Assembly (NCBI GenBank): GCA_002245135.1 | Contig: NGBS01000871.1 | Location: 248,001-312,000, forward strand | Origin: Proteromonas lacertae | Taxonomy: Eukaryota | Length of the DNA: 64,000 bases | Direction of reading: 5' to 3' | Part shown: positions 1 to 50,636 of the stretch, in pieces | Layout of the letters: each line of letters starts with the position of its first letter | Numbering within the stretch: the stretch's first letter is position 1 | Notes under the pieces: model-generated | What the model saw: only the letters and a program-made list of their open reading frames with translations | What the model was told of the DNA's origin: nothing | The model's database searches: none | Made by a program: the position numbers and the translations under genes

Positions 1-3000
1 TGAAGGTAATATTGACCACCAATAGTTGTAGATTTGTTCTTCATTATTGATCATTATTCTTTGTAATGAATCTAATTACAGTAAAAATGATATGTTTTAT
101 ATTATATACGAATATAACTGTTATACTGAACAACATTTCGTTTTGGTGGATAATGTAATCTTATATGATTTTCAATTATGTTTAACTTTATTGAGTTTAT
201 CCAGTTGTTGTATGATTTGTCATTATTATCATATAATAATCTTCTATTCTCCATTTCAGGCTATTTAATATAATAATATATATATATATATATTATACTT
301 TATCTGCTTTATTATCATTTTTATCATTTTCATTTACACCTAAATCAAATTTCTTTAAGAAATTGGCAAAGTCTTTAATCTCGTCATTATTCTTGTCTTT
401 ATCTTTTTCTTCATTTATATTTTGCAGATTATCTTTGTTTAATTGTTCTTTTTTATCATCTCTATCACCAATATCTTTATCTTTCTTCTTTTCATCGCCT
501 TTTTCATCCTTTTTATTCTCATCTTTAATATTATCATTTCTATTATCTTCTTTCTTTTCTTTATTGTTATTGTCATCATTCTCCTTTTTGCCATTCTTTA
601 CATTATCCTGTTTTACTTCACATTTATCTTTATCATCACAATCAATATCTTTATTTTCCTGTTTATTATTGTCTTTCTTATTATTCTCAACATTTTCATT
701 ATCTCTTTCATTCTTTTCATCTTTCTTTTCATTATCATTAAACCACTTATTATCATCATTTCCATTTTCTTTCTTTTCTTCATCTTTATTCTCCTTTTTT
801 ACTTCACATTTATCTTTATCATCACAATCATTATCTTTCTTATTAACATTCTTATCTTCTTCTTCTCTCTTTTCAACTTCATTCTTTTCATTTCCTTTAT
901 TCTCCTTATCATTTTCATTATTAAATTTCCATTTATTATCAAAATTGTTGTTATGTTTCCACTTATTATCATCATTTTCATTATCCTTTTTCTCATTCAC
1001 ATCTTTCTTTTCATTTTCATTATTGTCATTATTCTTCCACTTATTATTATAATTATAATTATATTTCCACTTATAATCATCCATATCATCTTTCTTTTCA
1101 TTCTCATTCTCTTTACCATCTTTTTTCTCATTTTCATTATTGTCTTTATTCTTCCATTTATTATCATTATTATTGTCTTCATCATTTTCTTCTTTCTTTT
1201 TCTTCTTATATTCCTCTATTAATGATGTATTATTGTTAATATTATTTAATTGACATGATGTTATATTGCCATTAATTGTAGTGTTTGTACAATTGGCTGT
1301 TGTATTAATAAGAAGAATTGGATCAATTATATAATCATATTCATCTATATAATAATAGAGAGATAATAATAATAATATATATATACTCTTTCTTAATATT
1401 AGATTATCCATCAAAACATCAATTGTTAAATTCTGTGTAATATTAGGTAATAATATGAATTTATTAAATAACAGATTCTTTTCATATTTTGATATATTAC
1501 AATATAATAATGACTGTAATTTTATTGGATTATATGATATCTCTTCTTCTTCTTCTTCTTCTATTTCTATTTCTTCTTTATTTTCTTTATTTTTATCATT
1601 TTCTTCTTCAAGTTGTCTATTATAATAGCTATACCAACTCTTTTCCTTCTTTTCTTCTTCTTTCTTTTCATTTTCATTATCCTTCTTCTTTTCATTATTA
1701 TTATCATCATCTTTCTTATTTTCTTTGTCTTTATTCATCTTAGTTGGTTTAATTACATGTTTTTTAATTGATAGAAAATACTCTGAAGTTACAGTTCTAG
1801 AATAATAACTATCACTATTCTCTTTATATTCCACTGATATTGTATCAACTTTATATTCTATACCTTTCTTCTTATTATTACCTCTTTTAGCGATAGATTT
1901 AGCGAATTCTATTTCATTTTCCCAATATTTATAATAATTATTGTGTGATGGAAATTTAACTGGAATGTATAGATGATTTACTAATTTTAATAAACTATAT
2001 ATATAATCCTCTAATTCATGAGGTAGTAGTATTTCATTATCGATATTATCATTGACTAAACTGTTATAATCAGTAATAATAACAGAATGAAAGATATCTT
2101 TAAAATATCTCTCTAGAATTGGTAGTAGATTATTGTAATTGATTGTACATGTTATATCATTAGATATTGAACGGTTTCTCTTGTTGAAGATATATCTATA
2201 AGATTCAGTTTCATTTGGCTCAATTGTGATAAAATTAAGCTTTGAATAGTGTGATATTAATGAAAATCCATAGTTACTATTAGCTGAGAGTATTAATATA
2301 TTTGTATCACTCTTCAATTTCGAGAATTCAGCAGTAAATGCATTACCTACATTTTCACTAATTTTTATCACTTCTGGTGTTGTTTTAAGTGATTCATTGT
2401 ATTGACTACCATAATGTATAACATGGTAAAGATTTGAAAGGAAATTCTCATTGGGTGGTGCTGTGTTATTACCAAATAAATATTTTGAGAAAATATCTTC
2501 TGAATTAGAGAGAAATGGTATGTTATGATTGTTTTGTTGGTTGTTGTTACTAAATGACGGTTTTTGAGGAGTTTTACGAGTTTCAATTATAACAGAATAT
2601 GGTGCAGTTGGAAGTGGCTGTTTTGTAGGTTTTGGTTCTTCATTTATAATTTTTGTTGGAGGAATGGTTGTAGGATTGAGAGGATTTGGAGGAACTGTTG
2701 CAATATCTGGTGGTTTTGTTCTTTTAACAGAATATATAACTACTTTATGTGGTTTCTTCGCACTAAATATAAGAAATAAGAAAATACTCTTCTCCGTTGA
2801 TAGCAATCTTATCTTCTTGTTTTGGCGAATCAGGTTCCTCATTTGGTAATTTATGAGCGGATCTTTCATTTTCTTCAATCATCACAGGAGTAACTAGTTA
2901 ATTAAAGAATATAATTATACGTCTAATCATAAAACTGAGAGAAACTACAACGAATGTTATTATTACACAGGCAAAAATGGTGTACCTCTTCAGTAAGTTC

Positions 3001-5114: not shown

Positions 5115-8100
5115 ATGAGTATTGGGATTGACTTAGGCACTTGTACATCATTAATTGCAGTTACAAAGACAAAAACTGTTAAAATATTGCAAAATGAAAG
5201 AGGTTTGACTGTTACACCATCATATGTGAGTTATGCTCATCCTGAGGTAGTAGTAGGTTCAGTAGCTAAATATGAGGTGGTTAAAAATCTAGATAAAGTG
5301 GTGTATGGTGTTAAAAGAATTATGGGTAAGCAATTTGATGATCCAACAGTAGAAGAAGATATAAAGAATTGGTCATTTAATGTAATTAATAAGAATAACC
5401 TGCCATATATACAAGTAGATCATAAAGGAAAGAATTTGGAATTATTACCTCAAGAAGTATCTGCTGAAGTATTGAAGTATTTAAAAAAGATAGCCGAACA
5501 AAATTTGAAAGAAATAAGTAGTGTAGTCATTACAGTTCCTGCTCATTTTGGTCAATTACAAATAGTAGCTACAGAAGAAGCAATTAGATCAGCTGGTTTT
5601 AAGAATTATAAAATATTAAAAGAACCAATTGCAGTAGCACTTACATACAGTGAATATCGTATGAAAAATGAAGATCACAAGATTTTGATATATGATTTTG
5701 GAGGTGGTACTTTTGATGTATCAGTTGTTGAATTAAGAGGTAAAATAATCGAATTAATAGCAACCAGTGGAGATGGTCACTTAGGTGGAGAAGATATAAC
5801 AAATGTGATATATGAACACTATTATGAAAAATATAAAGAACAAAGAGGTGGAACTGAAGGGAATGCTAGTGCAAAAGCTCACTTAAGAAAAGCTTGCGAA
5901 AGTGCAAAAATACAATTAAGTGAAACAGAAGAAACAACTGTTGAATGCAGTATATTGGAAAGTAATGGAATTGATTCTACTCTTACAAGAGCAGAGTTTG
6001 AGAAATTGATTAAAAATATTATAAGTCGAACAATATCAATTGTAGAGAATATGTTAGAGATGAAGAATATGAAGAAAAGTGATATTGGTGCAATTATATT
6101 AGCTGGTGGAAGTAGTAGAATTCCATTCGTAAAACATTTATTAGAAGAAGAATTTAAAGGAATACCTGTTTTTAAAACTGTTAATCCAGATGAAGCAATA
6201 GCGTATGGAGCTGCATTTTATGCCAATTTAATTGGTAAAACAGATCCAAATTTACCACAAATAGTAGATGCTAATGTAGAAATACAACATCCATCCATAA
6301 CAATCCCACAACAACAAATGAATAGTCCAAGACCATCTGTACCTTCACCAATATTCAACTCAAGAGAAATGAGAGAGAATAAAGATTGTGCAGCAATTGG
6401 AATTGATCTCGGTACTTCAACTTCATTAGCATGTTTTGCAAAAGATGGTGTACCAAGTCTTATCCAAGATGTTACTGGTAAAAATGAAGTTCATTCATGT
6501 GTATTGTATGAGAATGAAGAAAAAAAGATAATTGGAGTTACAGCAAAGACAAACGGAGCTAATGATGCTAAATCATTTGTTTATGATATAAAGAGAATAA
6601 TAGGAAGAAAATGGAATGATAAAGTATTACAGAGTTTAATAAATGAGTTGAATTACAATGTAATAAAAGATGCTTCTGATAATCCAGTAGTTGCATTTAA
6701 TGAAAAGATTCCTCCGTTTAATAAAACACCTGAACAAGTATCATCCGATATTTTAAAGCATTTAAAAAAGAATATTGATGGAAAATTAAATGGTAAAAAA
6801 TATAAAGTTGTTTTAACAGTTCCAGCTCATTTTACAGATTCACAAAGAAGAGCAACACAAGCAGCAGCTGATTTAGCAGATTTGAATGTCTTACAGTTAA
6901 TAAATGAACCAACAGCAGCAGCAATAGCTTATGGTTTAACAAATAATTTTAATAATGAAGAGAATACAATTGTTGTTTATGATTTTGGAGGTGGTACTTT
7001 TGATGTATCAATTATTAAAATAAAAGGTAAAAATATCGAATTACTTGCTTCTGATGGTGATGATCATTTGGGTGGCTCTGATTTGACTGAAAGAATATAT
7101 GATTATTTCTTGGAGAAATACAAAGAAGCTAGTAATATTAATTTCATAAACGCAAAAGCATCTCATCATTTGAGAAAAAGTTGTGAATATGCAAAAGTAA
7201 ATTTATCAGAATTTGAAGAGGTCGATGTAGATTGGAGTTTATTAGAGAATTATCATGTTGATAATGTACTGACTAGAAATAAATTCTATGAATTAACAAA
7301 AGATTTATTTAATAAAACAATCACAATATTAGATAAAACAATGAGAAATAATAATATTTCAAAAGAATCAATCAATGAAATTGTATTAGTTGGTGGAAGT
7401 AGTAAAATACCTTATGTTACAGAAATAATAAAGAATTTCTTACCAAAAGCTAAATTAAGTAAAGCAATCAATCCAATAGAAGCAGTGGCACTAGGAGCAG
7501 CAATTTTAGCTGATGATTTATTAAGAAATGGTGAAAATGCACAAATCTTTGAAAGATCTTATCTTAACCCACCTCCAGCTCCACCTTCATTGAATTCATC
7601 ATTAAATTCTTCTTTATTAGCTCAACCAGCTCCAACACCAACAATAGCTCCATTACAATTACCACCTGCAATGATTGATTCACTTGGATCAAGTGATGGT
7701 ATAAAATCTTCAGGTAGTAGAAAATCAATTCCACATTCTTTTTCAAGTAATAATAATAGCAGTATTAAAGAATCATTTATTATTAGAGAAAAGATTTCTC
7801 ATAGTTATGGTGTTCTTGTGATTGATTCTGATACAAATCAAAGAAGAATTGATATTGTTTTGAAGAAAGGAAGTAATATACCATGTTCAGAAAAGAAACA
7901 ATATATTACTGCTCCAAATTATGATAAGACAAAAATAGCAATTTATGAAGGAGAAGATATTGAAATAAAACCTGAGAATTTTCTTCATGATTTTATTTTT
8001 AGTGGTATAACTAGGACTCCAGAAGGTACTCCAATAGAGGTAGAATTTTCTGTAAATAAGAATGGATGTTTAGTGGTTAAAGGTATAGATTTAAGTGATC

Positions 8101-8141
8101 CAAGTAATACCAAAGAAGTAAAAGTAGCCACTAAAAAATAA
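5115..8141 (+). CDS. Atypical Hsp70-family protein: two tandem nucleotide-binding domains, Pro/Ser linker, truncated substrate-binding beta domain
   Basis: Single intronless 1008-aa ORF. GIDLGT, EP(I/T)A, DFGGGTFDVS, GGSS(R/K)IP and NP.EA.A.GAA each occur twice. The C-terminal ISHSYGV...IYEGE...IEVEFSVNKNG resembles SBD-beta. Confidence 0.9.
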   Translation: MSIGIDLGTCTSLIAVTKTKTVKILQNERGLTVTPSYVSYAHPEVVVGSVAKYEVVKNLDKVVYGVKRIMGKQFDDPTVEEDIKNWSFNVINKNNLPYIQVDHKGKNLELLPQEVSAEVLKYLKKIAEQNLKEISSVVITVPAHFGQLQIVATEEAIRSAGFKNYKILKEPIAVALTYSEYRMKNEDHKILIYDFGGGTFDVSVVELRGKIIELIATSGDGHLGGEDITNVIYEHYYEKYKEQRGGTEGNASAKAHLRKACESAKIQLSETEETTVECSILESNGIDSTLTRAEFEKLIKNIISRTISIVENMLEMKNMKKSDIGAIILAGGSSRIPFVKHLLEEEFKGIPVFKTVNPDEAIAYGAAFYANLIGKTDPNLPQIVDANVEIQHPSITIPQQQMNSPRPSVPSPIFNSREMRENKDCAAIGIDLGTSTSLACFAKDGVPSLIQDVTGKNEVHSCVLYENEEKKIIGVTAKTNGANDAKSFVYDIKRIIGRKWNDKVLQSLINELNYNVIKDASDNPVVAFNEKIPPFNKTPEQVSSDILKHLKKNIDGKLNGKKYKVVLTVPAHFTDSQRRATQAAADLADLNVLQLINEPTAAAIAYGLTNNFNNEENTIVVYDFGGGTFDVSIIKIKGKNIELLASDGDDHLGGSDLTERIYDYFLEKYKEASNINFINAKASHHLRKSCEYAKVNLSEFEEVDVDWSLLENYHVDNVLTRNKFYELTKDLFNKTITILDKTMRNNNISKESINEIVLVGGSSKIPYVTEIIKNFLPKAKLSKAINPIEAVALGAAILADDLLRNGENAQIFERSYLNPPPAPPSLNSSLNSSLLAQPAPTPTIAPLQLPPAMIDSLGSSDGIKSSGSRKSIPHSFSSNNNSSIKESFIIREKISHSYGVLVIDSDTNQRRIDIVLKKGSNIPCSEKKQYITAPNYDKTKIAIYEGEDIEIKPENFLHDFIFSGITRTPEGTPIEVEFSVNKNGCLVVKGIDLSDPSNTKEVKVATKK

Positions 8142-14475: not shown

Positions 14476-15846
14476 TCACATATAAAATTTAATTATTATT
14501 GATAATAAAACAACTAGAATTACTATTTCAAATATTAAATTATCTTTTCCATTTTTCTTATCTTTTTTTATACCATCATTCTCTTTATTCACTTCTTTCT
14601 TGTTTATTTTACTACTACTACCGCCACCGCTATTGCTACTGTATATACTGTACAAATATAACTTCGTAACACTCAAGAGATTCTTATCTTCACATATAAT
14701 ATATGGATTATCATCGATTGTAACACAATTACCATTTTCACTTTTTAATTTCACTTTCTCATCTTTAATCACTTCACATTCACAAATTATCATAAATGGA
14801 AAATCAAATTTATTCAAATCCTTCACAAAAGTTGAGTTTTTCCAGTAATAAGGACAATTATTGCAAAAATGCAAACATGTTTTCATATCACTAGAACTAT
14901 ATATTCCTTCACCCATTATTGAACCATTCCTTTCATTTTTACTACCACTCATGTTCAATAATCCATTGTGTATTATATTATGATAATTTTCAATATTACT
15001 ACCATGATAACTGACATAATAACCTTTACTATTTTTCATCTTTTCAAAATTTATAGAATTATAGAATTTGTCAATTTTAAAACAATAACTATAATCATGA
15101 TGATGTTGATCATTCTCTTTATATAATTCTAATTTTGTATTCAAATCATTCACAAGCCATAATAATGTCATTAATTGATTATCACTTAGTAATTTATAAT
15201 CAATAGAATCAAATGAAGGAATATTAACAATTTCATCAATTACTGGTTGTGGAAAATCTTTTAATATTTTGGGATATGGATCACAGATCCTCATATGTCG
15301 ATAACTTCTTATGGACATTGTAAATAAGGAGAATAATAAATCATATCCAATCAAATTGCTTTTTAAATGATTGTCTATTATTGTTGAACAAACTTCTCTT
15401 GTGTTTATTGTTGGATGGATTATTTCTTTATGTTCTTTTTGGAAATATTTCTCTAGTTCATTCTTGATATTGTTTATTATTATGAATATTGTTGAGGTTG
15501 GAGTTATTTCTGTATTTATTTTTTCTATGTAAAGATCGAAATCATATATCTCGCTTGTGTAGTATACAAAGAATGTATCGTCAATACTTTCTATATTCAC
15601 ATTATATTATAAATAAAAACCAATACTTGGTAATACTACTGTAATTGTCATTTCATATTCATTGTTACCACTTGAAGATACACAATACAAATTAATTGAA
15701 CTATCTTTTTCATTGTAATTTAAACGACGAATAATCTATAAAGATATAGTCAAAAAATGGATATTAAATACACTTTTATTCCTGGAAGCCAACAAATCAT
15801 CATATAGTTTCTGTTGAATATATCCAATGCTGTCAATTATTTCCAT
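14476..15846 (-). CDS. PARP16/PARP6-like mono-ADP-ribosyltransferase with C-terminal membrane anchor
   Basis: YHGSNIENYHNIIHNGL..MS....NG..MGEGIY motif, third triad position PYIIC, C-terminal TM IFEIVILVVLLSIII. Two upstream introns extend the ORF to ATG 15846. Confidence 0.8.
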
Positions 15847-22872: not shown

Positions 22873-25800
22873 ATGGAATATACGGTTTATTTAACTATTA
22901 AAGGTAAACAGCCATATCCATTTAAGATAGAACAATCATGTACATGTAATAATTTCATTCAAAATGTTGCAGTATAAAAATTACATTTTACACTATTTTA
23001 GAGACAATTTAACTTATCTCCTCAACATCTATCTTTGAAAAATTGTTCACAAACACCTATTCCAAGTAGTGATATTCCCATCTCATCGTTTATTAAAGAT
23101 AATGAGATTATTTTTGTTTCTTTCCAACAACAACAACTATCTACACAGCCACAATATCAACAGTTGTATAGTCAACCGCAACAACAATTATCACAATCAT
23201 ATTCTTATCAACAACCTCAAACTCAGCCATATCAAACACACAATCATACTGAACCTCAACAATCATCAATCCCTATTTCAAAACAACCTCCATCTACATC
23301 ACCTCAACAACCATATATACAACCAACTCAACAACAACAAAAGGTTAATAAGTATATACAAATTGTACAGAATATGAATCCTGTTTATATTCCTTTCAAT
23401 TATAATGGACAAACTAATTATACAAACCAATATCCTTATATCAATAACCAACAACCTGTAACAGCTTATCAAAATACTTCAAATGTTATACCTCCTCAAT
23501 CAAATTATCAATATCCAAATCCACCTCCTCCTGTTCCTCCTCCATCACCACCATATGATGTAAATCCTCAACAACTTCTTCCAGCATTTGGTGTAAATCC
23601 ACTACTACCACCTCCACCTCCAACATTTGATAATTCAAATCCTCCCCTTCCATCTTCGATAAGCGAAGAACAACAGCATATAGTTGATAATAAACCTGAA
23701 GATAATAATGGTAATATACCAACTGAAAATAAACATATGAAAGGAATGAGAAGAAGAAGAAAAATAAATCCTGATTCAGATTCAGATAGTTCATATCATT
23801 CAGAGGAAAATAGTGAAGGTGATAACAATGAAGAGAATGAAGAAGAAAATGAAATGAATAATATTCTAGAAGAAACTTCAAATGTGAAAGCTGATTATAC
23901 AATTAACGATGTAATTCATTGTCATCCATTTGTGGAATATTCTATTTTGATTCAATATAATGATACTAAAAAAATTGATTGTCTTTCATTAGATAATTTA
24001 TACATTAGGAATGATGATGGAAAAGTATATCCATCATTACCATCAACATTAGTTTGTGGATTAGATTATGTAGTAAAAGATTCTATAATTGGCTTTCTAT
24101 ATAGACAAGATAATAAATATAAAAATTTCACATTACCATTATTAGAAACAAGAAGTGATAATAACATTATTCCTGAAAAGATATATTTCCATCAAATATG
24201 TGAATGTAAAGAAAAATCCTATCGTTTTCCATCATTAAGAAATAAATCTGTTACTTGTCATAGTGATATAATGATTATTCACTCTCCAGATGAATCATTG
24301 GAAGTAATTGATGAAGATACAGGAAAGAAAATAATCTGTGAACCATATAGAGATGTAACAGCTATAAATAAAAGGTCTCAAGCTGTTTTAACTGAAAATG
24401 CATTAAAAAGAATGAAAATCATCGAAGATGGAATAGAAAAGAATACTCCATTATTAGTTGAAGGTAAAACTTCAAGTGCCAAAACATTCACCGTTGAACA
24501 AGTGTGTATGAATGGTCAAATTCCATTAATTCGATATAATTTCAGTCCATCATCAGTAATTGATGAATTGATAGGAAATGTGATAATAAAAACAATAGAT
24601 GGTAAATCAACTCCAATATTCCAATTAGGTCCATTTTCTGAAGCTTTTATTGAAGGAAAAGTGATATTATTGGATGAATTATCATTAGCCAATGCTGAAG
24701 TAGTTCAAGCAATAATAAATGTTTTAGATTCTCATGAATTATATGTTGATTCAATAGGAAGTGGTTATACAAAATATGATATGAATCCTAGTTTCAGAAT
24801 AATAGCAACTCAAAATCCAGCTGGTTCAATATATAAAAGAACCAAAATTGATGAAACAATGATGTCTAGATTCAGATATATTGATTCAAGATTCTTCCCA
24901 GAAATAACAAGAGAAGAATTAAACAAGATATTAGAATCAATTGGAAAAATCTCAAAAAGTAATGTGAATGATATTTTAAATTTTCATCAAAATGCATTAG
25001 CCAATCATCCAGATAGAGTTTATACATTGAGAGATTGTATTAGAGCAAATACTCTAATAACATCAGCTAAATGTTCTTCAAAAATAGCTGCAGAGATTGT
25101 TTATGGTGATATATTACTAACAAGTAAACTGAATTTATCTAAATCACCTGAAATTAGTAAATCTACTTTATTTCCATTGAATGAAACTATTTGGAATAAT
25201 CTTTGTCAATATATTGAAGCAATATTCAAATCAGGTTGTCATATTTTATTGTGTAGTGAGAATGAATTTACAGCTAGAAAGTATGTATTATCATATCTCC
25301 AATCTATTCATGATAATGAAAAACTCAATATTATAAGATGTACAAGTGGAACAACAACTGAGAATTTGGTTGGAATGTTTCAATTAGAAGGAAATAATAA
25401 TAATGAAGAAAATGGAAATGATATTAAAATAGCCCCAAAATGGCATGATTCTCCTTTAGTAAAAAGTATAATCAATGGAGAAACTTGTTTTCTTCAATCC
25501 TTAGATAATATGAAATCTAATTCAATCGAAAGATTGAATTCTTTATTAGAAATAATACCAAATGATGGATGTAAACAGAAAGTGAGATTTGATGAAAGAA
25601 TTGAAGAACCAGAAATTGATATTCATCCAAATTTCAGAATAATTGCAAGTGTTTCAAAAAATGGTTTAATGAAATTCTCTCCTGCTTTGATTAATAGATT
25701 TATATTGGTTAATTTACCAGATGAAAAAATAGAAAATGCATTTGAAGAAAGTGATGAGAATAAAAAAGAGATGATAAATACTTTCTGTGAATCATTCTTC

Positions 25801-28800
25801 AAAGAAGATAGATATATATGTATGAATGAATTAACAAAATATTATGAAACACCCTCAAAATATTTAGAATGTTATGAAGGATTATTTGAAGGAGTTGAAG
25901 AAAGAAGAGAGTTATTAAGTGAAATATTAATATCATTAATCACACACAGATCAATAGCTTTATTTGGACATAAAGAAAGTGGTAAAAGTTATTTAATAGA
26001 ACAACTGTTGAATGGAAGTTATAATCCAATAAAATCTCTAGCATTATATATCTCTCCAGAAACTGAAATTGATCAATTGTTAGGATTCTTCACAAAGGAT
26101 AGAGAATTTCATCGAGGTGTAGTTATATCAGCAATGGAAGAAGGTGTAGTATTGGTGATTGAACATTCTCATTTATTATCAAGTGATATATTACAATTGT
26201 TTGAAACATTTATTGATCCAACCACTAATGAATTTGAATATATGAATAAAACCTTCAAAATACATCCATTATTCAGAGTGATATTCAATTTCACAACATC
26301 TGGTGATAGAAAACCAAATCAATCAATACCTTGTTATTGTCCAAGTTTTGAAATAAAAGAATATACCAATGAAGAAAAGAGTAAGATATTTGACTTACCA
26401 AAAGAAATATTTGAAAATGATTTATTCTCAATGACTCAACTTCATTATTTAATTCCATTAAAATCAATATATAAAGAAAAAGATAAGTTCCCTTATTTGC
26501 TTGGTTTATTTTGTGATGAAAGTAAAATATCATTATTAGATGAGATGTTCGAAGATATAATCAAAGAAGTAACAATAGAAACATTTCTGAAAAGTAAAAT
26601 TCAAATCACAAAAGAAAAGAATCATTATACTCTATCAAAGTATAACATATCAACAACATGTGAATTAAATAAAATATCTGATAATGTTGATAATTGGTAT
26701 TTGGAAAGTCTATTTCGATTATCGTTATTATCATCAAGTGATTGTCAAGCACCAGTTTTATATATCACATGTGAATCATTCCAAATGTCTTTAATGAATG
26801 ATTTATATGAAGATAATGGAAGATTTATCGAATTATCAAGATCTTATGATTCTTCTTATTTGATAGGAAGTACTTTAATTTCCAGTCCATCTGAGTTATT
26901 AACAACAATGAATCAAATAGCAACATCATATAAAAAATACAATAATCATAATCCAAGTGATGCATTTGTTAAATGGAAGAATAATATGGAGGAAATAATG
27001 AAATATAATGAAGAATCTTGCTTATTCTTCAAACCTGGTTTGATAATGACAAGTTTTATAACTGATGAAACATTGATATTAAATCATTTTGATCTTATAA
27101 GTGAATCTGTTTTACCCAGAATAACAGGATTATTGGAATTATACAAAGGAAATATGTTTTATAATAAAAATGATAATAATCAATATGTTTATTCAGTTTA
27201 TGAAGATATAATGAATCAAATAAAAGATATAAGGAGTTTTATTCCACCCAAGATGATAGGAGTAATAAGTGATAGTGATTTTAATAGAATTAATGATAAA
27301 TCTTTATTCTTGCCAATCTATTGTCCAAATCCAACAGAAACAGAATTAATCAAAAGATTTCCATTATGTAAAGATATAATTGGATACCCATTACACTTTT
27401 ACATATTGGAGGATAGAATACAGAAGTATTTTAGTAATCCAATTAATTCAATGTTTTATTTAGATTATATATCAAGAAATCATCAATCAAGATATGAATT
27501 ACTAAGATCTAAGAAAGCCAAATCTGTTTCTCAACCATTACAAAGACTATTGAAATTGGATGATAAGAATTTTGAAGAAGTATCAGCGATTTTGGATGTT
27601 GATAAATTATTGAAAGAAGTATTTAGTGTTAGTTTTATGGATGTGTATGATAAGATTCAAGATTATTTGAATAAGAATATTCAAGAATCATTTTATATAG
27701 TTCCAACCACAGTTCATATGATATTGACATTATTATTAGGAATACAATCGAATTTACCAGTGATATTAGAAGGTGATCCAGGTGTTGGTAAATCAGTAAC
27801 AGCTCAACATGTTTATAATGCTTTGGATATTCCAATATTCAGATTTAATTTATCACCAAATATAACAATTCAAGAATTATTTGGTAGTTTAACAATTGGA
27901 TCTGATCAAAATCAAGAAAGAAAACCAGGTATAATAACAACAGAATTAGAAAATCATAAAGATGATGAAGAAATAGGATTTCTATTTGATGAATTGAATT
28001 TAGCTCCACCTGATGTATTGGATGAGTTTTACACATTTATAAAATGTTGTACTGATAAGAATAAAACAACATTTGATGCTCCTGGATATAGGAGAATAGA
28101 ATTGCCAAAGAAAGTTCATATAATTTGTACTTTAAATCCTGCTTCAATGACAAGTAACAGATCTTCTTTATCAAGTAATTTATTAACAATTAGTTTATAC
28201 CATAATGATATATCATATCAATTATCTGAATTATTGACAATAGGCAAACAAATATTAAAGCAAAGTGAAAATCCAGAAGATGGAGCTGAAGATATAGAAA
28301 AGTTCAATCAAATAATCAATCAATTATTTGAACAATCCTTAAGACTTGGAAAACAAATAGGTATTGGATTTACATTGAGAGAACCAATCAAAGCAATAGA
28401 AGTGTGGAGAAGTTTTGATATAAAAGCTGATATAAAAGCAGCTTTATGGTTGACATTCGGATGTAAATACAATCAGAAGGATATTCAAGAAATTGAGAAA
28501 GTTTTATCAATCAATAAGGAAATGAATATAAAACTGATAGGTAAAGAAGAAAATACATTATTAACAGGTCCTTGGTCAATTCCATTCTCAAAAGAATCTT
28601 GTGGATTTGATTTTAATCAATTCACAACCTCAGAAAAATCCTTAGCTTATAAAATAGCTTTATCATATATATCCAAAAGAGCAGTGATATTATACGGTCC
28701 ATCTCCATCTGGTAAAAGTTATGTATTAAGAAGATTAGCAGAATTATATAATCAGACATTGATAGTTGTTCCATTGAATAGTGAAAGTACAAGTTCTTTA

Positions 28801-31800
28801 TTGATAGGTAGAATGGAATTAGTTTCATCTGGAAAAGAAAAGAAAACTTCATTAGAGTTTAAGAAAGGTCCATTATTAACAGCTATAGAAAAAGGATGTT
28901 GGATAGTAATAGAAGATATAAATCTAGCAAGTGGTGATATTTTGGAAAGATTAAACTCATTATGTGAAGAAAATCCAGAATTGAAAATAACTGAATATAA
29001 TGGTGAAAATGGAGATGAAGAAATAAGATATACAAGAGATAATCCCAAAGCTGAATATAGAATTCATGATAATTTCCGAATTTATTTCTCTTTTTCAACA
29101 ACCAATCTAGCAACAATTCCAGCTCCATTGTTAAGTCGTTGTATAGAGATATATGCTAATCCATTAAACACAGTAGAATCTGCTCAAGAATTGTGTTATA
29201 TAAAAGAGAGAGAAAATGAAGTGAAATGTTTTGGAAAAGAAATTCCAATTAATTTTAGAAATATACTGAGATATTTGAATAATCCAAATGATGAAAGCTA
29301 TGAATTTGAATTTCATATGAGAAGAGAATCAAAATATCCAATATTAGTAAAACCTCCAGAAACTAATACATCGAATATAAGTATATTAATCAAAAGATTG
29401 AAAGATAAGAATGTTGATAAAATTGAAGATTTGATAGAACAAGTAATGAATGATAGTATATTGATGTTTAATAGGAAAGGAAGTAATAGTGAACATTCCC
29501 AAATATACCAAATAATCAATTCTAAGTACACATCATCATTATTGTATTATCCACTTTATCAGATATATTCAACAGTGAATAAGAATTTTGGTAAAAATAC
29601 AACAATAATTGAATGTAATTCAATTCTTCAAAGATGGATTTTATTCAAATATTTCAAAATATCTTCATCAGACAAGATGAAATATATTCACAAATGTCCT
29701 TTGATTGATATAAAAGATAATGAAATATGTAAATTGAAAGAATATTATAAATTAAAAAAAGATTCAGATGAGTTGTTGTTATGTTATATAATAGGTAAAG
29801 ATAAAGTATTATTGAATAATAAAGTTTCTCAATGGAATAGATATCAAAATGTGTTTAGTGATATAATTGAAAAGATAGATGAATTAGGTCCAATAGAAGT
29901 AATAGAGAATATAATAAACAAAACACTTCGATTATTGAATAAATCCTCATATTTATTAAGAAAATCAAAAGGAAATGAAGTTATAACAAATTCTTTATTT
30001 AATGATATTCAAAGAATATATGATGAATTTGATGAAGCAATGAAAGATACAAGTTTAAAACTGAATAGATTCTATGGAATGGATAAATATTTTGAAGAAT
30101 ATTCTACATTTTATACTGATATGAAAGGATCAAAAAATACATCAATGATAAGAGATCATAAAAAGAGAGAAAAAGTAATGAATTATAACAAAATCAAAAG
30201 AGAATTAACAAATATAAAGAGTGGATTTGAAATGGATTTTGAAGAAAAAAACAATATAGAAGGAATAGATGATGATGCTTATGATTTATTAAAAGATATA
30301 AAACAAATAAAAGACACAGGAATAGATTATAATGAAATTGAAGATAAAGAAGCAAGATTGTATTTAGAATGTAGTCATTTCTTATATGCGTTAGAAGTGT
30401 CAAATACAGCATCAGCAATAGTTCAATATTATGAATTATTGAGAGAATTAGAAATATCAAAAGATAAGTTAATTCATGATTTTGATAATTTTAAAGTTAT
30501 GAAAGAATCTTTAGAAATATATGTGACAGCTAGAATCAATTATTATGCTAAAACTGTAGATTTGAATTATTATTATTCCATAATTAAAGAAGCTCCATTT
30601 TATATTCATAGAAAAATAACTCAACAACAATTAGATAGTGCAATAAATACTTTATTAGATAATGAATGGATTAAATCGAAACAAACATTTATCAATGGGA
30701 GAGTTGATTATGATTTATCACATATAACTGATAAATGTAATACAGATTATTATGAAGATAATTTGGATTTACAAGCATTGAGAATTATTAGATATGTAGA
30801 AGAAGAAAATGAAAGAGAATTGGATTTACATAAGATATTATCATTAGAACCATACAATTACACAAGTAAATGTGAACCAGGAACAATAGTATCATCATCT
30901 GATTTAAAATATGAATATCAAATTAGAAATTATAATATGAAAAAAGGACCTTTGTTTTATATCTATGAAGGAATATATAATTCATCATTACCATTTCATG
31001 ATAAATTAGTTTTAATATGTCCATTATTACACAATGAATTATCAGATATTGTGTTAGAAATATTGAGTGAAAAATCATTGAAAGATTTCTTTAAAACAAA
31101 TCCTATTCTAAAATCAATAGATGATATAATTCCAAAAGCAGATGAATATCTTGAAAATGAATATAAAAATAGAATAGAAGGAATAGATCAGAAGATAAAG
31201 AGATTAGAAAAAGAGTATAATGAATTGAAGAATAATAAAAACAAATTAGGAAACTATTGCATTCTCATGGAAGATAAATTAAAAAGAGGTGCTAAAAAAG
31301 TTGTTGAAAGAGAAAATAAAGAATTTGAAAAGAAATATGGATCAATAGAATCAATAGAGAAAGCTAAGAATTATATTTTGACATTATATTATCATGAATC
31401 AATAAATCATATGATTGAAAAATCAAGTCCACATGATTCTGAATTATCAGAAAATGATATTAAAAAATTATTAAATTCAAAACCAGACTCAATTTATTTT
31501 AAAGTTGCTGTTTTTAGATATAAAAAATATTCTAGTTTCAAATTTAAACTTCATTGTGGTGATGATTCAGTATTGGGATTTACAAAACATGAAATAAATA
31601 TTTCTTCTAAAGAAGGAATGTTTAATAAAGTTAAAAATTATTTTGGTTATGGTGATGAAAAGAAAGAATTATATGTTGTTTTGCCATTATCAACTTATGA
31701 TGTGGATGTTGAAATAACAAAACATAAATGTGATGCGGAAATGGAATATAAATATTATCCATTTAATTCAGATAATAAAGATGATTATATCTCTCGTTCT

Positions 31801-34800
31801 TTGATGTTAAATATGATAAAATTCTGTAAAGAAAATAAGATTAGATGTGAAACATCATTGAATAAAACATTAATAGAAAAATATTCATTCTTACTTAAAG
31901 GTGGAAATAAATCTGGAAGTTTAAATAAAGATTATAGATTATATAAATTTGATAATAATTATGGATATAATGGAATTAATCTACATAATTCATATTTTGA
32001 TTCAGATTTAAACATATTTCCTATTAACCAAATGTTCACTTACTTTAAACTTTCAAAATGTATTTCAATACCAAGAAATGCACCAAAAGCAAATAAAACT
32101 GAAATGAGTAGATTAACAGAAGATATATATAAAATATTTATCAAAAAGTCATTTGCTTCTATAAATGATTATTATTCATATATTACAAATACTTCTACAT
32201 ACGTAAAAGGAATAAGGAATGATTTTGGAGATATAATAGAAGAGATAAATAAATCTAAAAAGCAACTAGATGGGATTGTAAAGAAATATTCAATAAAGCT
32301 TCAAGAATTAGAAAATGCAAAGAAAGAAAAAGAGAGTATTGATAGATTAAAACCAATACAATCAAAAGTGTTTATTCCAGAAGGATATGCATATAAAAGA
32401 GATAATTCACAATCAAAGAAAGAAAAAATGAAATTAGCTAACATGATATTTATAACGAATATCAAAGATCATGAATTTATTCTTCCTGAAGATGATTATA
32501 TTGAATTACCTCCATTAGTCAAATCCAGATCTAATCCAATTATAACAATTCCAATAATCAATCCATCTAACATCAATATATCTGTTGAATCAAAGAAATG
32601 TCATGTTAGAATAACACCATCAAGTGAATTAGAAATAATGATTGATAATCCAGAAGTAGGAGAAATAGAAATACCAATAAAAATATCAATTCCAAACAAA
32701 TCTGTAGAAATGAAAGTAAAATTTGAAGTGAAAGAATATGATGGTGTTTTTTTCACAAATTATCAATGTGGAATTGATGAAAGTCATCCAAATAGATTAA
32801 TCTATACATGTGAATATAATGATTCTCTATTTGAATTAACATGGTTTGATGAAAAAGGAAAACATACAAAACAACATAATAGGAAAGATGATATTAAAAT
32901 GGAAGTTGATGATCATTATTCTGTTTATTATGTTTCTTCTTTAAATCAACCATTAGGTTTTAAATTTATTGAGAAAAAAGGAAGATGGAAATTATATAAT
33001 CCTGATAAAGAATCTCCATTAAATGATATTGTTGGTTTACCAAAAGATATAGTTGATGTAGATGAAAAATTAAATCAAATACAACAAAAGAATAGTTTGA
33101 CAGAATATGTTAATGGTTTAAAGAATATATTCTTATCAAAACTATCAAATAATGAAGATGTAAGTGATAAAATTGATCAAATAATTTCCTATTTATATCA
33201 TATTGCCAGTAATAAAGAAGATTATCTGAATAGTATATTCAAATTAGTAAATGATAATCTTCAATACATAAACACTCAAAATCATCCATTAATATGGAAA
33301 CAAAAACGAGAATTAGGAAATGAAGTAAGAAAGAATATAAACAATCCACAAAATGATAGAAAGAAAGCAGTTGCTGAAGTAAAACAGAACGACAATATTA
33401 CATTATTAACAAGAGTTAATAAAGTAGATAATAACAATGGAAAAGGAAAATTAGTGAAATTGAGTAAAAGAGAGTGTGATAAAGATATAAATGTTATAGC
33501 AAGTGCTTTTATAGGTGATATGAATCCTGAAATAGAAGATAAAGTAAATGAAGAAAATGAAAATGATGAAAATGAGAATGAGATGAATGAAGAGGATATA
33601 GAAAGACAGAAAGATAATTTGAGAGATATGAATGTAAGAGATATATTAGAACATTTCAAAGCGATGACATTAGATGAATATTTCAAATCAATAGATGAAA
33701 GAAGAAATGATATAGATGCAACAAAGATAATGAAATTGAATGAAGGAGAGAATAGAATTCCATTAACAGAATTTAAACCAATAAATGAAATTGATACTAA
33801 TATGATGAAAGAATATAGAAAATCATTATCGAAATATGTTTATTATATGACAAATGAAATAAGAAATCTAAATTCAAAGAGAGAAAACCCATTACAACTG
33901 ATTCAAACATTGACAATAATAATTGATACATCATTTACACATAAGAAATACAAAGCCAGATTAAGATCATTAACAGCATGTATATTATTATTGATTTGTA
34001 AAGAGTTGAATATATCAACCCAAATATTAGCATCATTATCTCATGGTCAATGTATATCAATAGCTGAATATAAAGAAGATTTATATATAAAAATGAGTAG
34101 AATATTTGATTTAGAAGGAGTAGAGAAAATGCCTTCAACTCCATTAGATGTATTTTCATATCCTGAAGATACACCAACAAATAATCCAAACCATGATCAT
34201 ATGTATATAATAGTAAGTGATTGTTTTTCAGAACAATTATTAACTTCCAATGATGATGTATGTAATTTCATAAGAAGTAATTTGAAAGTATTATTTTTGA
34301 TGAGAATTAATGGAAATAAAGATCATCCAGATGAATTATTATCACCTGATAATTCTGCAATGATGAAAAAATGTGTTGAATACAATTTTACATCAAATAA
34401 CAATATAATGATTGATAATGAAAGATGTTTTGAAGATATGAAATATTTTGTGAAATTATATCCTTTCTTCTATTCTGAAAGAGTAATAGAATATAATATA
34501 CCAAAAGATATAAAACCCCAATCCAATCCAAATATAAATGATAATTCAAAATCAATAGGAATAGGATTATATGAAGTAAAAGAAAAAGATATATATGCAG
34601 TTTTAATTGATGATAGTAAATATCATGGAAATACAATAAAACTACCAGCTGTTGGTGATAAAGATTTAGATTTCATAAGTCATGGAAATGGTAATGTTGT
34701 ATTACATAAATATTTGACAGAGAATATAAAGAGTAATTTGTTATTTTATCCATTGAATTCTTCTTTAACAATTCCAAACAAACCAACAACATGGATAGCT

Positions 34801-37302
34801 AGTGTATCTGGAACATCAATTCATTTCCAGAATTTCATAAAGTTCATAATAACAGGAATAAGTGATGGAAAATTTTTCAAAAAGAAAACAGGAAATAAGA
34901 TAAGATCTTATAGTTTATCAATAGTGTTAGATGCATCTTCATTCACAATGAGTCCAATCAATATATCTCATACATTAAAGACATTTTATACCTTATTAAG
35001 AGGAATATGTGAAGTGAATGTTCCAGCCATAGATATTTGGATTGCAACTGATCAAATAAACAAAATAGGAACAGGTTTAAACTCAACTGATGCTTGGAGT
35101 CCAATAATAATGAGTTCAATAAATCAAATAGTAGAAACATGTAAAGATCATCCAATTGAAGTGACTTGTTTATGTGAAACATTACAATATTCAATAGCAA
35201 CTTGTACATCCAGACCATATAGTCCAATAGTATTTGTATTAACCAATAATTGTGTCATGAATAAAGAAATGAAGATAAGATTGAAAGAAGTGATAAAATC
35301 AACTGATTGTAATATAATTGGAATGGGAGTTGGATATAATTTATATGTTGATAATATGAAGAATTTATTTCCTCATTATTTATGGAGTTATAATCCTGAT
35401 AATTTAGACAAAGTAATATCTTCAATGAGTAATCCAATCATAAAAGAGAAAGAGAAAGGGGATTGGCAAAAGTGTCCATATCCATTTGAAAATGGTTCAA
35501 TCAACGATTTAACAATGCCAGTTTCAATAATGGATGAAATAATGGTGAAATTTATAAGTGAATTATATTCTGCGTATGAATTTAGAGCTAAGTTCTTTAA
35601 TGTATTAAAAACCAGAGATGGAGATATAAATGCTTTAGAAGAGAATGTGGCAAGTAATGAATATGATTTAGGTAAAGATGGTGCATTTAAAGGATTTAAT
35701 GTATTGATAGTGATATTATATTTATGTCGTGGAATAAGAGATTCAATAACAGGAAATATAATAGATCCAGATATAACTGATGCTATATTACAGAATGGAA
35801 AAGCTGATGAAAAAGGAGTAAATCATAGTCCAGTAAAGAAACTTGAAGAAAAAGGCTTTATGGTGTTAGTAGTTTATGATTATTATACAGCAATTCAAGA
35901 AATAGCTACAAAACAATATAGAAGTGTAATAGTAACATGTAGTGATGGAACTGGAGTATTTCCTAAAGAAGCAGCTAATACAGAATTTGGTTATTTATAT
36001 TCATTTATTGATGTATTAAAACAGTTTTATGAATGTGGAGGAGGTATATTTTGGATGTTAGAAAACTATCCATATACTTATGAAGCAGATATATTCTTTG
36101 AGAGAGTATATGGAATAAAAGAATTATGTAAAGATGTGAATATAGCTGGTGGAAAGACAATGAGTCGAGATGTAAATGCAACAGCAGGTCATTTCTTAAC
36201 AGTTGGACAAGATGCATTCCAATTTAATATAAACAATTTGAAGATTGATACAGGTTTGAAATATATATATGAAGGTAAGACTTTAGCTTGTTTAGATGAA
36301 GAAAAACTTGGAGAAAAAGGTTTTAAGAAGTTTGCATGTGAATCAACAGGTAAAGCTTCAATAATGTTGAAAGAACAAGAAGGAAATAAAGGTAAAATGG
36401 TGATAGATACAGCTTCAACGAAATTATTTTTAGAATTCACAAGTGATGGAACAAGTAGATGGATTAGTAATGCTGTTGTTTGGTTATTGAATATTGATAG
36501 TTATTTCTCATGTAATAGATTTAATGGAAATATTCCAAATACATTACCAATTCAAGTTGATATGAGTAAGATAACAATTGATAATTCTTATGTAAAGAGA
36601 GTATTGACAAAACCAGTAAATTTCTGTTTGACTGTTGTAATGGATTGTACTAGATCAATGAGACCTTATATTGAAAGTACAAAGAATCTTATTATGTCAT
36701 TATTCAATGAATTAAATGAAATAAAAAGAAAAGCTGGTGTTGATGCTTCATCAAAGATATGTGCACAATTCGTTGGATATGGCGATTTCTATGATGATCC
36801 ACCAAAAGGAGATAAATGTATTTACAAACAGTCTGGAGTTATGGAGGATATTCAAAAGTTAATAGAATTTATGAAAGATGTAAAAGATGATGCAGAAAGT
36901 GGTGAAGATGTAATAGAAGATTTGAATGATGGCTTTGATTGTGCTGTTAATAATATAAGATATTTAACAGATAATTATAAACATATGATATTAGTTGCAG
37001 GAGATTTTCCTGGTCATGGTGATGGAAATGGTATTGTTAGTGATTCTTTTCCATCAGAACATCCAATTAAGCATGTTAGTTGGGATAGTTTTTGGAGTGA
37101 CGTATGTGATAGATTTAAAAAAATAGATGCTGATGTTCATTGCTTATGTATTAACAATTGTGGTATTTCAAATACAATGGATAGAATAAGAAAATTCTAT
37201 CCAAAAGTTAAAGATTACCGAACAAATGATGCTTCACAGTTTTCCAAAGTAATGAGAGAAGCAATAGTATCTCAATACAAAGCATATGTAGGAGTTACAT
37301 AG
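22873..37302 (+). CDS. Giant (~4,799 aa) UBL / six-AAA+ (midasin/MoxR-like) / multi-vWA / GATase-like protein
   Basis: Exon 1 22873-22971, 30-nt intron 22972-23001, then one open frame to TAG 37302. Walker A/B pairs: GKTSSAKT/ILLDE, GHKESGKS/LVIEH, GDPGVGKS/FLFDE, GPSPSGKS/IVIED, plus two degenerate modules. vWA-like IIIDTS, IVLDASSF and VVMDCTRSM. Confidence 0.85.
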
Positions 37303-38964: not shown

Positions 38965-39226
38965 AAGATGTGTATATTAAAATGAAAATTTGAATTTGGA
39001 GCGAAAATTTAAAAAAGCTTGATTATGTTTGAAAATTTAAATCTCATTTATTGAATTTATTAAAAAGAATTGTTGCTTAAAACAAACCAATATATCATAT
39101 TCGTATCATTTTGATTACTATATATATTTTATTAATCAATAAGAATTTTAACCAACTACTTCAGGAAGTGTATTTAATCAGAAATTTAAACGGTACAATT
39201 GAAAATCTTGTGATTTGAACAATAAA

Positions 39227-39283
39227 GAACGATCTAGAAAGTGTATAAGAATAAAAAAAAGAAAAAAGAACTTTAGAATATTC
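39227..39283 (+). promoter_or_regulatory. Heat-shock-element-like nGAAn arrays upstream of BiP (present in both arms)
   Basis: GAAcgATCtaGAA at 39227-39239 (one mismatch to GAAnnTTCnnGAA) and GAAtaTTC at 39276-39283, followed by CCAAT at 39290. Confidence 0.4.
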
Positions 39284-39384
39284 TTTAAGCCAATAGAATT
39301 GTGACAAGTGAAATGAGGCTTAATTAGTATTTGTTTGTTAATTAAATAGTTTCATTTTCTATTTTCATTAATTTCATCTCAAAT

Positions 39385-41488
39385 ATGAAGAAATTTTTGA
39401 TATTTTTAATTGGTATGTATATAATTATATTAATGAATGCATATAATTGAATAATATGCATTGAATCTATATTATAAGACTGTTTTGTAATTTTTTATAG
39501 TTTTCAGTTTAGTAGTTTTCGCGAAAAGTGAAAAGAAAAGTGACGATGGTGATGAAGAATCCGAAAAAGAGAGTTTAGGAAGTGTAATTGGTATAGATTT
39601 AGGTACAACTTACAGTTGTGTTGGTGTATTCCAAAATGGTCATGTAGATATAATCGCGAATGACCAAGGTAATCGTATTACTCCAAGTTATGTAGCTTGG
39701 GATGGTGATGATCGTTTAATAGGTGATGCTGCCAAGAATCAAGCTACAATCAATCCTGAAAGAACAGTGTTTGATATAAAACGTTTAATTGGTCGAAAAT
39801 TTGGTGATAAGACAGTTCAACACGATATGAAGATGTGGCCTTTCCATGTAGTTGATAAAGGTAGCAAGCCTTTTATTCGTGTGAATATCAAAGGTGAAGA
39901 TAAAGATTTCAGTCCTGAAGAAATCAGTGCAATGGTTTTAGGTAAAATGAGAACAATCGCTGAGAACTATTTAGGTAAAGAAATCAAGAATGCTGTAGTA
40001 ACAGTTCCAGCCTATTTCAACGATGCTCAAAGACAAGCTACAAAGGATGCAGGTACAATTAGTGGTATGACAGTTCGTCGTATAATTAATGAACCAACAG
40101 CAGCAGCTATTGCTTATGGTTTAGATAAGAAAGGAGGTGAAAATAACATTTTAGTATTTGATTTAGGTGGTGGTACATTTGATGTAACTTTATTAACAAT
40201 CGATAATGGTGTATTTGAAGTATTAGCAACAAATGGTGATACTCATTTAGGTGGTGAAGATTTTGATCAACGAGTGATGGCTTATTTAATGAAAATCTTC
40301 CAAAAGAAATATAACAAAGATATGTCAAAAGATAAGAGATCAATTCAAAAATTACGTAAAGAAGTTGAAAGAGTAAAGAGAATGTTAAGTAGTCAACATC
40401 AAGCTCGTGTAGAAGTTGAAAGTTTATATGATGGTGTAGATTTCAGTGAAACCTTAACTCGAGCTAAATTTGAAGAATTAAATATCGATTTATTCAAAAA
40501 GACATTAGAACCAGTAAAGAAAGTATTAGAAGATGGTGATATGAAGAAACAAGATGTAAATGAGATAGTGTTGGTAGGTGGTTCAACTCGTATTCCAAAA
40601 GTTCAACAATTATTAAAAGATTATTTCAATGGTAAAGAATTAAACAAAGGTATAAATCCTGATGAAGCTGTAGCTTATGGTGCTGCAGTTCAAGGAGGTA
40701 TTTTAAGTGGAGATGCTAGTGAACAAACAAAAGATATCTTATTATTAGATGTAACTCCATTGAGTTTAGGTATTGAAACTGTTGGTGGAGTAATGACAGT
40801 GTTAATCAAAAGAAACAGTGTAATTCCAACCAAGAAAAGTCAAATCTTCAGTACATATCAAGATAATCAACCAGGTGTTTTAATCCAAGTATTTGAAGGT
40901 GAAAGATCTATGACAAAAGATAATCATTTATTAGGTAAATTTGAATTAAGTGGAATTCCTCCAGCTCCTCGTGGTCAACCTCAAATCGAAGTAACTTTTG
41001 AAATCGATGCCAATGGTATATTACAAGTAAGTGCTGAAGATAAAGGTACAGGTAAGAGTGAAAAGATCACAATAACAGCTGAGAAAGGTCGATTAAGTGA
41101 TGATGAAATCGAGAGAATGGTAAAAGAAGCTGAAGAATTTGCTGATGAAGATAAGAAGACAAAAGAACGTGTAGATAAGAAGAATAGTTTAGAAGGTTAT
41201 GCTTATAATTTAAAGAATACTTTGAATGATAAAGAAAAAGGTGTAGCTGATAAACTAAGTGAAGATGAAAAAGAGACCTTAGAAAAAGCTGTAAAAGAGA
41301 CATTAGATTGGTTAGATGAACATGATGAAGCTGATGCTGAAGAATATGAAGAAAAACAAAAAGAATTAGAAAGTATAGCTAATCCAATAATGGCTAAGTT
41401 TGGAGGAGGTGGTGCAGGTGAAGCTCCTGGTGGTGGTGCTCCAGGTGGTAGTGATGGAAGTGATGAAGATTTTAATGAAGAATTGTAA
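39385..41488 (+). CDS. BiP: ER luminal Hsp70 (BiP/GRP78), copy 1, 671 aa
   Basis: Signal peptide [17 protein letters not shown] split by intron 39413-39500. [28 protein letters not shown] and complete NBD/SBD. C-terminal NEEL. Confidence 0.97.
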
Positions 41489-41771
41489 AAGATATTATAT
41501 AACACAATTTTGTTTCTAAATTTTATTATTTTTTTTATTTTTAGTATTATTTATTTGATTGGGTTCGTGATTAAGATAGATTTGTTAAGTAGTATAAAGT
41601 TTGTAATACATATTTTATGTTTATTTTTATTTTTATACAAAATATACTGCAACTAAAAATAAGAGTGTGATTTATTGATTTATAATCGTTTATCTTGTTG
41701 ATATGATTAAGGTGAAAAATGAAAATAAATTCAGTATTTTTTCGCTCATTTCAGTTGACCCCCAAATTTTA

Positions 41772-43559
41772 ATGAATTCAAAAATCTTAGGCTATTCAGT
41801 TAAAACGTTATTGGGAAGGGGTTCTTTTGGTGAAGTTTATATGGTAGATAAGGATGGAGAAATATATGCATGTAAAAAACTGACGTCCAGAATGAATCAT
41901 GAAACAAGAAAAGCTTTACACCAGGAAGTATATTTAGCTTCATTTTATAAAATAGTTGAAAGCTTTACAAACCATTTCTAATAGATATATAGTTCATTAT
42001 GTCGATTCATTCGTTTACCAAAAAAGTACACACATAATAATGGAATATTGTCCTAGTGATATAGATAAAATAATCAGAGAATTAAGAACTACAGGCAGAA
42101 GGCTTACTGAGAGAGGTATTTTAAATATACTCGTTCAGTGTTTATTTGGATTAAGTTATTTACATGAAATTAATTATTTACACAGAGACATAAAACCAGG
42201 AAACCTTCTGATTACCTGTGATGGAGTAACAATATTAGGAGATTTAGGATTGACTAAGATGAATATAGACGATATAAGAAGACAACAGACGTTATGTGGT
42301 ACACCATCGTATATGGCACCAGAAGTATTAGCAAAGAGGTGTTATAATTCAGTAATTGATATTTGGAGTTTAGGAACAACGATATATGAGTTATGTACAT
42401 TAGAGCCATTATTTACAGGTCAATACCATGAACTATACGAGAAACAGAAAAAAGGACCAGTAATTCCAATACCAAATATATATTCAAGTGAATTAAAAAC
42501 AATCATTTTACATATGTTAATATATGAAGAATGTAATAGGCCAACAGTGGATGAATTATTATCTAATCCATATATAAAGGAATATATTAATAACAATATG
42601 GGTAAAGCATATGATAATGTAATGTTACAGGATGTTCAATCATTATTTGCAGAATCAGATTCATCATCAATGTCTGGAGTATTTTTATTATTAATATTAT
42701 TATGAATAGTCTTATAGAGATATCACACATACAACAGCTAGACCTCCTCCACCAATCATATTTGAATAACCTTTATCCTCTTGTTCAGATTGTTCAATAA
42801 TATTCAATGGAAATAATAATAATAATAATAATAATAAGAAAAGTGATTCACAAGATGAAGAAAGTATTGAAATTGATAGTGATGGTATAGAATCAGAAGT
42901 TCCAATATCTGATGTAATATCACTCTATAATACTCCTCATTACTTTATTGATTATTATCATAATAAGATGCCTGGACATAGTGGAAAATTGTATAGAAAC
43001 TTGGTAGTTGTTGGAGGTGAAGATGAAAGGATGATTGACTTTATAAATATTTATAATGATGGTTGTGTATATATTATTAATATATTATTATTAATATAGT
43101 TGTTATTTCCATGTCAAAGTAAATATGTATATTGTGATTGTGGGGTTAATCATACAATTTCTCCATTACAATTATCAGAAATTGACTCAATTCAAGAATT
43201 AATACAATCTACAATAAAATATTATGGAAAATTCCTTGGTTATAAGATAGAGTATTATTATATCATTTTATTTCATTTTTAATAGTCTAACACATGATAA
43301 AGTAATGGTTTTAGCTGAAAGAGATGAAAAGTTATTCAATTATGCAAATCGTCCAGAACAACATCATTTACTTGCTAGATTTTTTGAATTTCTTCAATTA
43401 TTTGATTTGACTAAAATACAAGAGCAATTATTTATTCATATTTATTGGTCAATTAAACATAATCCAATTTTATTTAAGAATAGTGGAAATGCATTGTTAT
43501 CTCTTCTTACTCCTTCATTAAGATCAGATTTCAGTATTCCATCCAGTGGTAAATTATAA
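41772..43559 (+). CDS. NEK/NIMA-like Ser/Thr kinase; C-terminal extension interrupted by an in-frame TAA at 42767
   Basis: LGRGSFGEV, YACKK, HRDIKPGN, GDLGL, CGTPSYMAPE and DIWSLG. Introns 41928-41955, 42679-42709, 43067-43099 and 43252-43285 keep one frame except for the TAA. Confidence 0.8.
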
Positions 43560-50507: not shown

Positions 50508-50636
50508 GATAAAATATCACTATAGAATTTGATTTTTACTTTTTTTAAACAATGTTTTTCTATTTAATTCTAAATACACTCACATAAATAAAAGTAATAA
50601 TAATACATACATATTTATAATTATGAATATTTCTCA

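Follow-up and report, generated by a model that had tools for sequence, protein, structure and literature searches.

A lidless Hsp70-like gene with two nucleotide-binding domains on a Proteromonas lacertae contig

Introduction

The architecture of Hsp70 is usually considered fixed: one nucleotide-binding domain (NBD), a short linker, a substrate-binding domain (SBD), and a lid. DnaK linker stimulation needs the residues VLLL. Two described systems come closest to the protein reported here. Ssz1 is described as lidless, with an unusual linker, tuned to low-affinity binding, and with a Leu-Pro pseudo-substrate; the same source gives on and off rates 10-100 times faster for lidless DnaK (PMC7083937). 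Hsp110 is described as keeping the NBD of its partner open through added contacts of an α-helix bundle (PMC4753570).

Here, we analyze an ORF in a 64,000-nucleotide stretch of P. lacertae DNA (contig NGBS01000871.1, positions 248,001 to 312,000; hereafter, the window). The encoded protein shares with the canonical Hsp70s (HSPA1/HSPA8, BiP, and DnaK; approximately 38% identity) an actin-like NBD complete in its audited catalytic residues, as well as a hydrophobic linker and an SBD-β. It differs from them in having a second NBD, a linker about 80 residues away from NBD2, a divergent substrate pocket, and neither lid nor tail. Judged by its predicted sequence, with a second NBD, a displaced linker, and no lid, it is not a canonical Hsp70. 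It has the absence of a lid in common with Ssz1/HSPA14 of the ribosome-associated complex, but Ssz1 has one NBD and does not hydrolyze ATP, whereas the predicted protein keeps the catalytic set in both NBDs. As in Hsp110/Grp170 bound to Hsp70, two Hsp70-type NBDs occur together; Hsp110/Grp170, however, acts in trans and needs its α-helix bundle, which the two-NBD protein does not have. By predicted architecture, it is not an Hsp110.

Results

A single stop-free frame of 1008 aa occupies positions 5115-8141 of the window on the plus strand and scores 735 bits against Pfam HSP70. An earlier note on this DNA had described a double-headed Hsp70 in one ORF, and the open frame and its profile-placed domains bear this out. 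The domain order is NBD1, a 49-aa spacer, NBD2, a 73-aa Pro/Ser spacer, and SBD-β. NBD1 (aa 2-373; 5118-6233, +) was placed by a family profile and is followed by a linker-like remnant, QIVD (aa 382-385; 6258-6269, +), and an in-frame Pro/Gln/Ser-rich inter-NBD spacer (6270-6386, +) with an internal Met at aa 419 (nt 6369). NBD2 (aa 427-803; 6393-7523, +) was placed by a family profile match at 6396-7523 together with a residue audit. The tract of about 70 Pro/Ser-rich residues noted previously is present as the 73-aa spacer (7548-7766, +), delimited by model and profiles and predicted to be disordered. A hydrophobic interdomain linker, FIIRE (aa 888-892; 7776-7790, +), leads into SBD-β with its divergent pocket (7791-8141, +), after which the frame stops with no EEVD or KDEL-type tail. 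With profiles derived from 70 canonical matches, the boundaries are similar (NBDs at aa 2-372 and 427-800, SBD-β at aa 911-1004), and the canonical SBD-β profile matches 7845-8129.

The α-helical lid and EEVD had been reported missing, and this holds: the chain ends after SBD-β, and a six-frame search of the window gave no lid-profile match near 5115-8141, with matches in two BiP copies only. The same search found no hidden lid exon. The first NBD strand begins at the very start of the ORF; the protein is therefore likely to be cytosolic. The gene had also been called intronless in an intron-rich genome. A crude census found no candidate intron inside the ORF and 38 (+) and 48 (-) in the window, some of them overlapping; the candidates are short and AT-rich, in DNA of 27% GC. 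The absence of introns is nevertheless not special, because the body of BiP and a 14.3-kb ORF in the window are also single frames.

We then considered whether one gene is really present. The inter-NBD junction has a GC content of 35%, compared with 24% in flanking DNA, and it is stop-free for 55 codons, a length matched by 13 of 1,705 overlapping 55-codon windows of flanking DNA, which includes some exons. At the DNA level, NBD1 and NBD2 reach at most 69% identity over 351 nt and 86% over 36 nt. Together, the GC content, the rarity of such an open frame, and the low DNA identity make a misjoin or chance read-through across the junction unlikely. An assembly misjoin of two paralogous loci is extremely improbable in our judgment, as the identity is too low for repeat collapse, the frame is continuous over the junction, and multi-NBD frames in relatives occur on many separate contigs.

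Two transcripts, the first closed by a polyadenylation-made stop of the Blastocystis type, could also mimic one ORF. Neither the gene nor the junction contains TGTTTGTT, which we take to be the Blastocystis motif for such stops, and the rarity of so long an open junction speaks against this reading as well. In a quick tree of one gene (43 rows), the BiP of the window and a 90%-identical Logan protein are sister to a clade with Blastocystis sp. Blastoise (SH-aLRT 99), which suggests a host of the Opalinata type among gut stramenopiles. This placement lends the two-transcript reading some weight, since missing stops are described as merging adjacent gene models in Blastocystis, but the same source describes such a motif as absent from tortoise isolates and Proteromonas (PMC10690189). 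We consider two transcripts very unlikely. At the level of genomic sequence, the two-NBD, lidless Hsp70-like gene is real.

To compare the two nucleotide sites, we audited residues in Hsc70 numbering, mapped on P0101, at 10 catalytic, 9 pocket, and 9 coupling (allosteric) positions. Among them, we take D10, T13, K71, E175, D199, T204, and D206 to be the Hsp70 catalytic residues of the actin-like NBD. NBD1 and NBD2 each retain all 10 catalytic positions (D10, G12, T13, K71, E175, D199, G201, G202, T204, and D206). As the earlier note had stated, the phosphate-1, catalytic Lys, EP Glu, phosphate-2, and adenosine motifs are every one present in both NBDs, and profiles and audit alike support a non-canonical Hsp70 in which both nucleotide sites are intact. 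The remaining positions differ between the domains. NBD1 keeps all nine pocket residues and two of nine coupling residues, its losses including N151G, D152Q, R155I, N174K, and T177I. NBD2 keeps six of nine pocket residues (E231S, R342K, and D366I are changed) and six of nine coupling residues, with the D152 and R155 equivalents present and R171 gone. Without R171, E231, and D366, NBD2 may be the weaker ATPase of the two.

R155 and D152 are the equivalents of DnaK R151 and D148, which are described as carrying NBD-SBD coupling; in the same report, the isolated DnaK NBD with its linker and without an SBD hydrolyzes ATP 40-fold faster (PMC12406271). In P0375, a relative whose single NBD is accompanied by an SBD, the same coupling residues are missing (4 of 9). 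The losses in NBD1 may therefore predate the fusion.

NBD1 and NBD2 are identical in 147 of 380 columns (39%). The earlier claim that this is no fresh duplication stands for the domains; two old paralogues could still have fused recently, because the identity speaks to the age of the domains and not to that of their joining. Such a young or neutral read-through fusion, joining adjacent paralogues of a family with fast turnover in frame, would leave NBD1 as a passenger, with NBD2-SBD doing the work, possibly from Met419. The two domains are no closer to each other than to relatives (34-44%), as this reading expects. Separate phylogenies of the NBDs neither recovered nor rejected their sisterhood (p-AU 0.444), and their nine private shared states rank fourth of 45 pairs. 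The internal Met lies eight residues upstream of NBD2, NBD-NBD joins recur in other proteins, and the upstream NBDs of relatives have decayed, all of which also favor a passenger. Yet the NBD1 frame is unbroken by stops or frameshifts, its catalytic and pocket positions are conserved throughout (19 of 19), the GC content of the spacer resembles that of coding sequence, and three relatives hold multi-NBD frames open across long divergence. On balance, we regard a passenger NBD1 as rather unlikely.

The path from NBD2 to the SBD is unusual. The gap of 94 residues compares with a median of 14 and is the third longest of 400 junctions. No short hydrophobic linker directly follows NBD2, and FIIRE is kept adjoining the SBD instead. 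GSRKSIP, at the end of the 73-aa spacer, aligns with G-[RK]-K-V-V-type segments of three relatives. After NBD1, QIVD begins 20 residues past the Gly of the last NBD1 helix, approximately at the position of the Hsp70 linker Asp, and has just two hydrophobic residues.

When NBD2, the spacer, and the SBD were modeled (pLDDT 88, pTM 0.87), the spacer was disordered and the distal linker, FIIRE, formed a strand. The model matches docked, ATP-like structures of lid-truncated BiP (TM 0.88) and DnaK (TM 0.77), both by target and with an rmsd of about 3, so the predicted ATP-state fold is like that of canonical Hsp70; most of the rows behind it were canonical Hsp70s, which it may simply mirror. QIFE, which lies proximally after NBD2, was not supported as a replacement linker, the stretch being helical in the model. 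The Pro/Ser spacer of the two-NBD protein contains Leu-Pro-Pro runs. A role for the spacer as a pseudo-substrate in cis was not seen, as the model left it disordered and did not place it on the SBD. Peptide binding by the SBD, given its divergent pocket, is assumed.

An AlphaFold model of the full-length protein was dropped, because single Hsp70s were aligned across both NBDs and its best NBD was a chimera spanning residues 1-803; it bears on neither NBD packing nor QIVD docking. A complex fold of NBD1 with NBD2 scored 0.39 (best of three controls, 0.00); this was rated weak, and no interface is given. The runs agreed in at least 85% of contacts, with a partner pLDDT of at least 85. Of 78 solved complexes, 51 passed the mark of this test, as did 2 of 108 mismatches; passes at 0.60 or lower, however, came from only 5 of the 78, together with every one of the 4 mismatches that passed. 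Moreover, the NBD1-NBD2 score could stem from solved Hsp70-Hsp110 and Hsp70-Hsp70 pairs already known to the predictor.

These results bear on the suggestion that the NBDs face each other in cis, one controlling exchange or hydrolysis at the other, as in Hsp70-Hsp110 or an Hsp70 dimer. The score above controls is in keeping with such an arrangement, as are the 49-aa spacer, which is likely to be long enough, and the unequal conservation of the two pockets. Against it, a pass at this score is rated more often wrong than right, both NBDs carry the canonical DxGGGTFD, and the bundle to which Hsp110 exchange is ascribed (PMC4753570) is missing. The earlier proposal of a Hsp70-Hsp110 NBD-NBD contact mimicked in cis thus fared poorly, and we consider cis control doubtful.

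Protein database searches found no close relative of the two-NBD protein. Both NBDs cluster with Logan proteins that form a lidless, mostly long-spacer Hsp70-like family. The grouping appeared in a FastTree of 185 rows (8 rows, support 98), a mixture-model tree of 44 rows (11 rows, support 95), and a careful tree of 32 rows (10 rows at 99/93; the AT-rich controls fell outside), which omitted the upstream NBDs of P0035 and P0272 with their long branches. In a 16-row tree, support was lower (93/92, unstarred). The rows of these trees included no known Hsp110, Ssz1, or HSPA14. We also built family profiles from five single-NBD relatives, leaving out the two-NBD protein, and scored them against three control profiles. 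With the NBD profile, the best of 165 NBDs was NBD2, NBD1 came third, and all of the first six were domains of multi-NBD members; with the SBD profile, the SBD of the two-NBD protein ranked first of 132, by a margin of only 2.9 bits. On sequence grounds, the two-NBD protein groups with this lidless, long-spacer family.

The five single-NBD members (P0144, P0375, P0267, P0260, and P0359; 541-587 aa) have a long NBD-SBD spacer and end right after SBD-β. Three members have more NBDs: P0035 has two and P0272 three, and P0291 has two full NBDs plus a broken one. Full-length copies make up 9 of 12, 7 of 10, and 12 of 12 cluster members, respectively; the copies differ by few residues and lie on 7-12 contigs. 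The family thus shares with our protein a clade, a lidless end, and one to three NBDs, with the long spacer in the five singles. In contrast to NBD1, with 10 of 10 catalytic residues, the four audited upstream NBDs of these relatives keep 4, 0, 3, and 1 of 10; the broken P0291 repeat is not among the four.

No orthologue with the same NBD-NBD-SBDβ arrangement was found, the best identity to any relative being 42-44%, and selection on the joined form is therefore at most a possibility. Scans of JGI metagenomes and IMG/VR, which detect close relatives only, returned no DNA-level close relative of the two-NBD protein; likewise, there was none for P0267 in JGI metagenomes or for P0035 and P0144 in IMG/VR. 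On these scans, a viral origin is unsupported. The ESM Atlas returned generic Hsp70 clusters only.

Tandem NBDs recur elsewhere. NBD-NBD starts occur in 17 of 385 collected proteins, the two-NBD protein included (16 of 384 others), and most of the others are plant or animal gene models outside its tree group. Six plant or insect pairs have each NBD sister to its partner. The scattered hosts and the sisterhood within pairs indicate that the layout arose many times. Models from Salvia, Citrus, Mikania, Papaver, Carex, Thrips palmi, Trinorchestia, and Panagrolaimus also show NBD, linker remnant, NBD, and usually SBD, but fall outside the Logan family; several near-identical plant pairs may be annotation merges. 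As an architecture, then, tandem Hsp70 domains are not unique to this gene, but a described family of this kind was not found in the literature. Titles and abstract openings on tandem-NBD Hsp70s, atypical protist Hsp70 expansions, and Opalinata/Blastocystis genomes described neither the architecture nor the family, and "hsp70" is absent from the current main text of a Blastocystis genome preprint, whose first version counted 6. Within this literature, the lidless family with one to three NBDs appears to be undescribed.

Two further cases were noted. Thrips palmi P0024, which likewise has a Pro-rich spacer and no full lid, shows a convergent layout of decayed NBD, linker remnant, Pro-rich spacer, NBD, SBD-β, and truncated lid. 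P0009 and P0399 (ENA; 1002 and 1006 aa), both on a 202-kb contig, are NBD-NBD-SBD-lid proteins close to animal cytosolic Hsp70 and represent an independent tandem-NBD case.

Discussion

We propose, with a probability of roughly 45%, that tandem paralogues of an expanded family were joined in frame, yielding a fast-release, low-affinity NBD2-SBD-β unit together with an ATPase, NBD1, that is uncoupled from the SBD. In the modeled ATP-like state, the distal FIIRE linker would let SBD-β dock onto NBD2, with the Pro/Ser spacer looped out. Lacking a lid, the protein would bind and release clients quickly. ATP-driven peptide release is proposed from the coupling residues kept in NBD2 and from the docked model. 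NBD1, without SBD-docking residues but with a linker remnant, would bind and turn over ATP by itself; a partner, or NBD2, would dock on this module in a nucleotide-dependent manner. A decayed pseudo-ATPase at the same upstream position in relatives fits a scaffold role that needs no catalysis.

In a bolder version, which we hold to be improbable, gut stramenopiles would have made the Hsp70 ATPase domain a repeatable module, in a lidless family of one-to-three-NBD arrays. The protein described here would be its form with two active sites, the NBDs packing in cis and gating each other, and would act as a self-contained machine with no need of an external exchange factor.

A natural Hsp70 family that lacks the lid, has a stretched linker, and repeats its NBDs reveals which elements of the architecture are open to change. 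Under our preferred reading of joined paralogues, two intact sites, one predicted to be SBD-coupled and one not, allow NBD-NBD communication and ATPase activation by the linker to be tested within a single chain. Should the gene be no more than a recent fusion, it would be another by-product of turnover among Hsp70 genes, and the lidless family would then be the more useful result.

The rest of the window contains several other genes. Two BiP genes (39193-41517, +, and 43730-46055, -) form a 2.3-kb inverted repeat with 99.7% identity, and a kinase-like ORF (41956-42705) lies between them. The frame at 23002-37302 (+) encodes a midasin-like protein of 4766 aa with several dynein-related AAA_5 domains and a C-terminal segment that is vWA-like by eye. 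A multi-exon gene at approximately 50600-56150 (-) resembles, also by eye, a four-repeat voltage-gated cation channel. An 858-aa frame at 293-2869 (-) has no Pfam match and a long low-complexity tail of Lys, Asp, Glu, and Asn, and a protein with a PARP catalytic domain is encoded at 14476-15318 (-).
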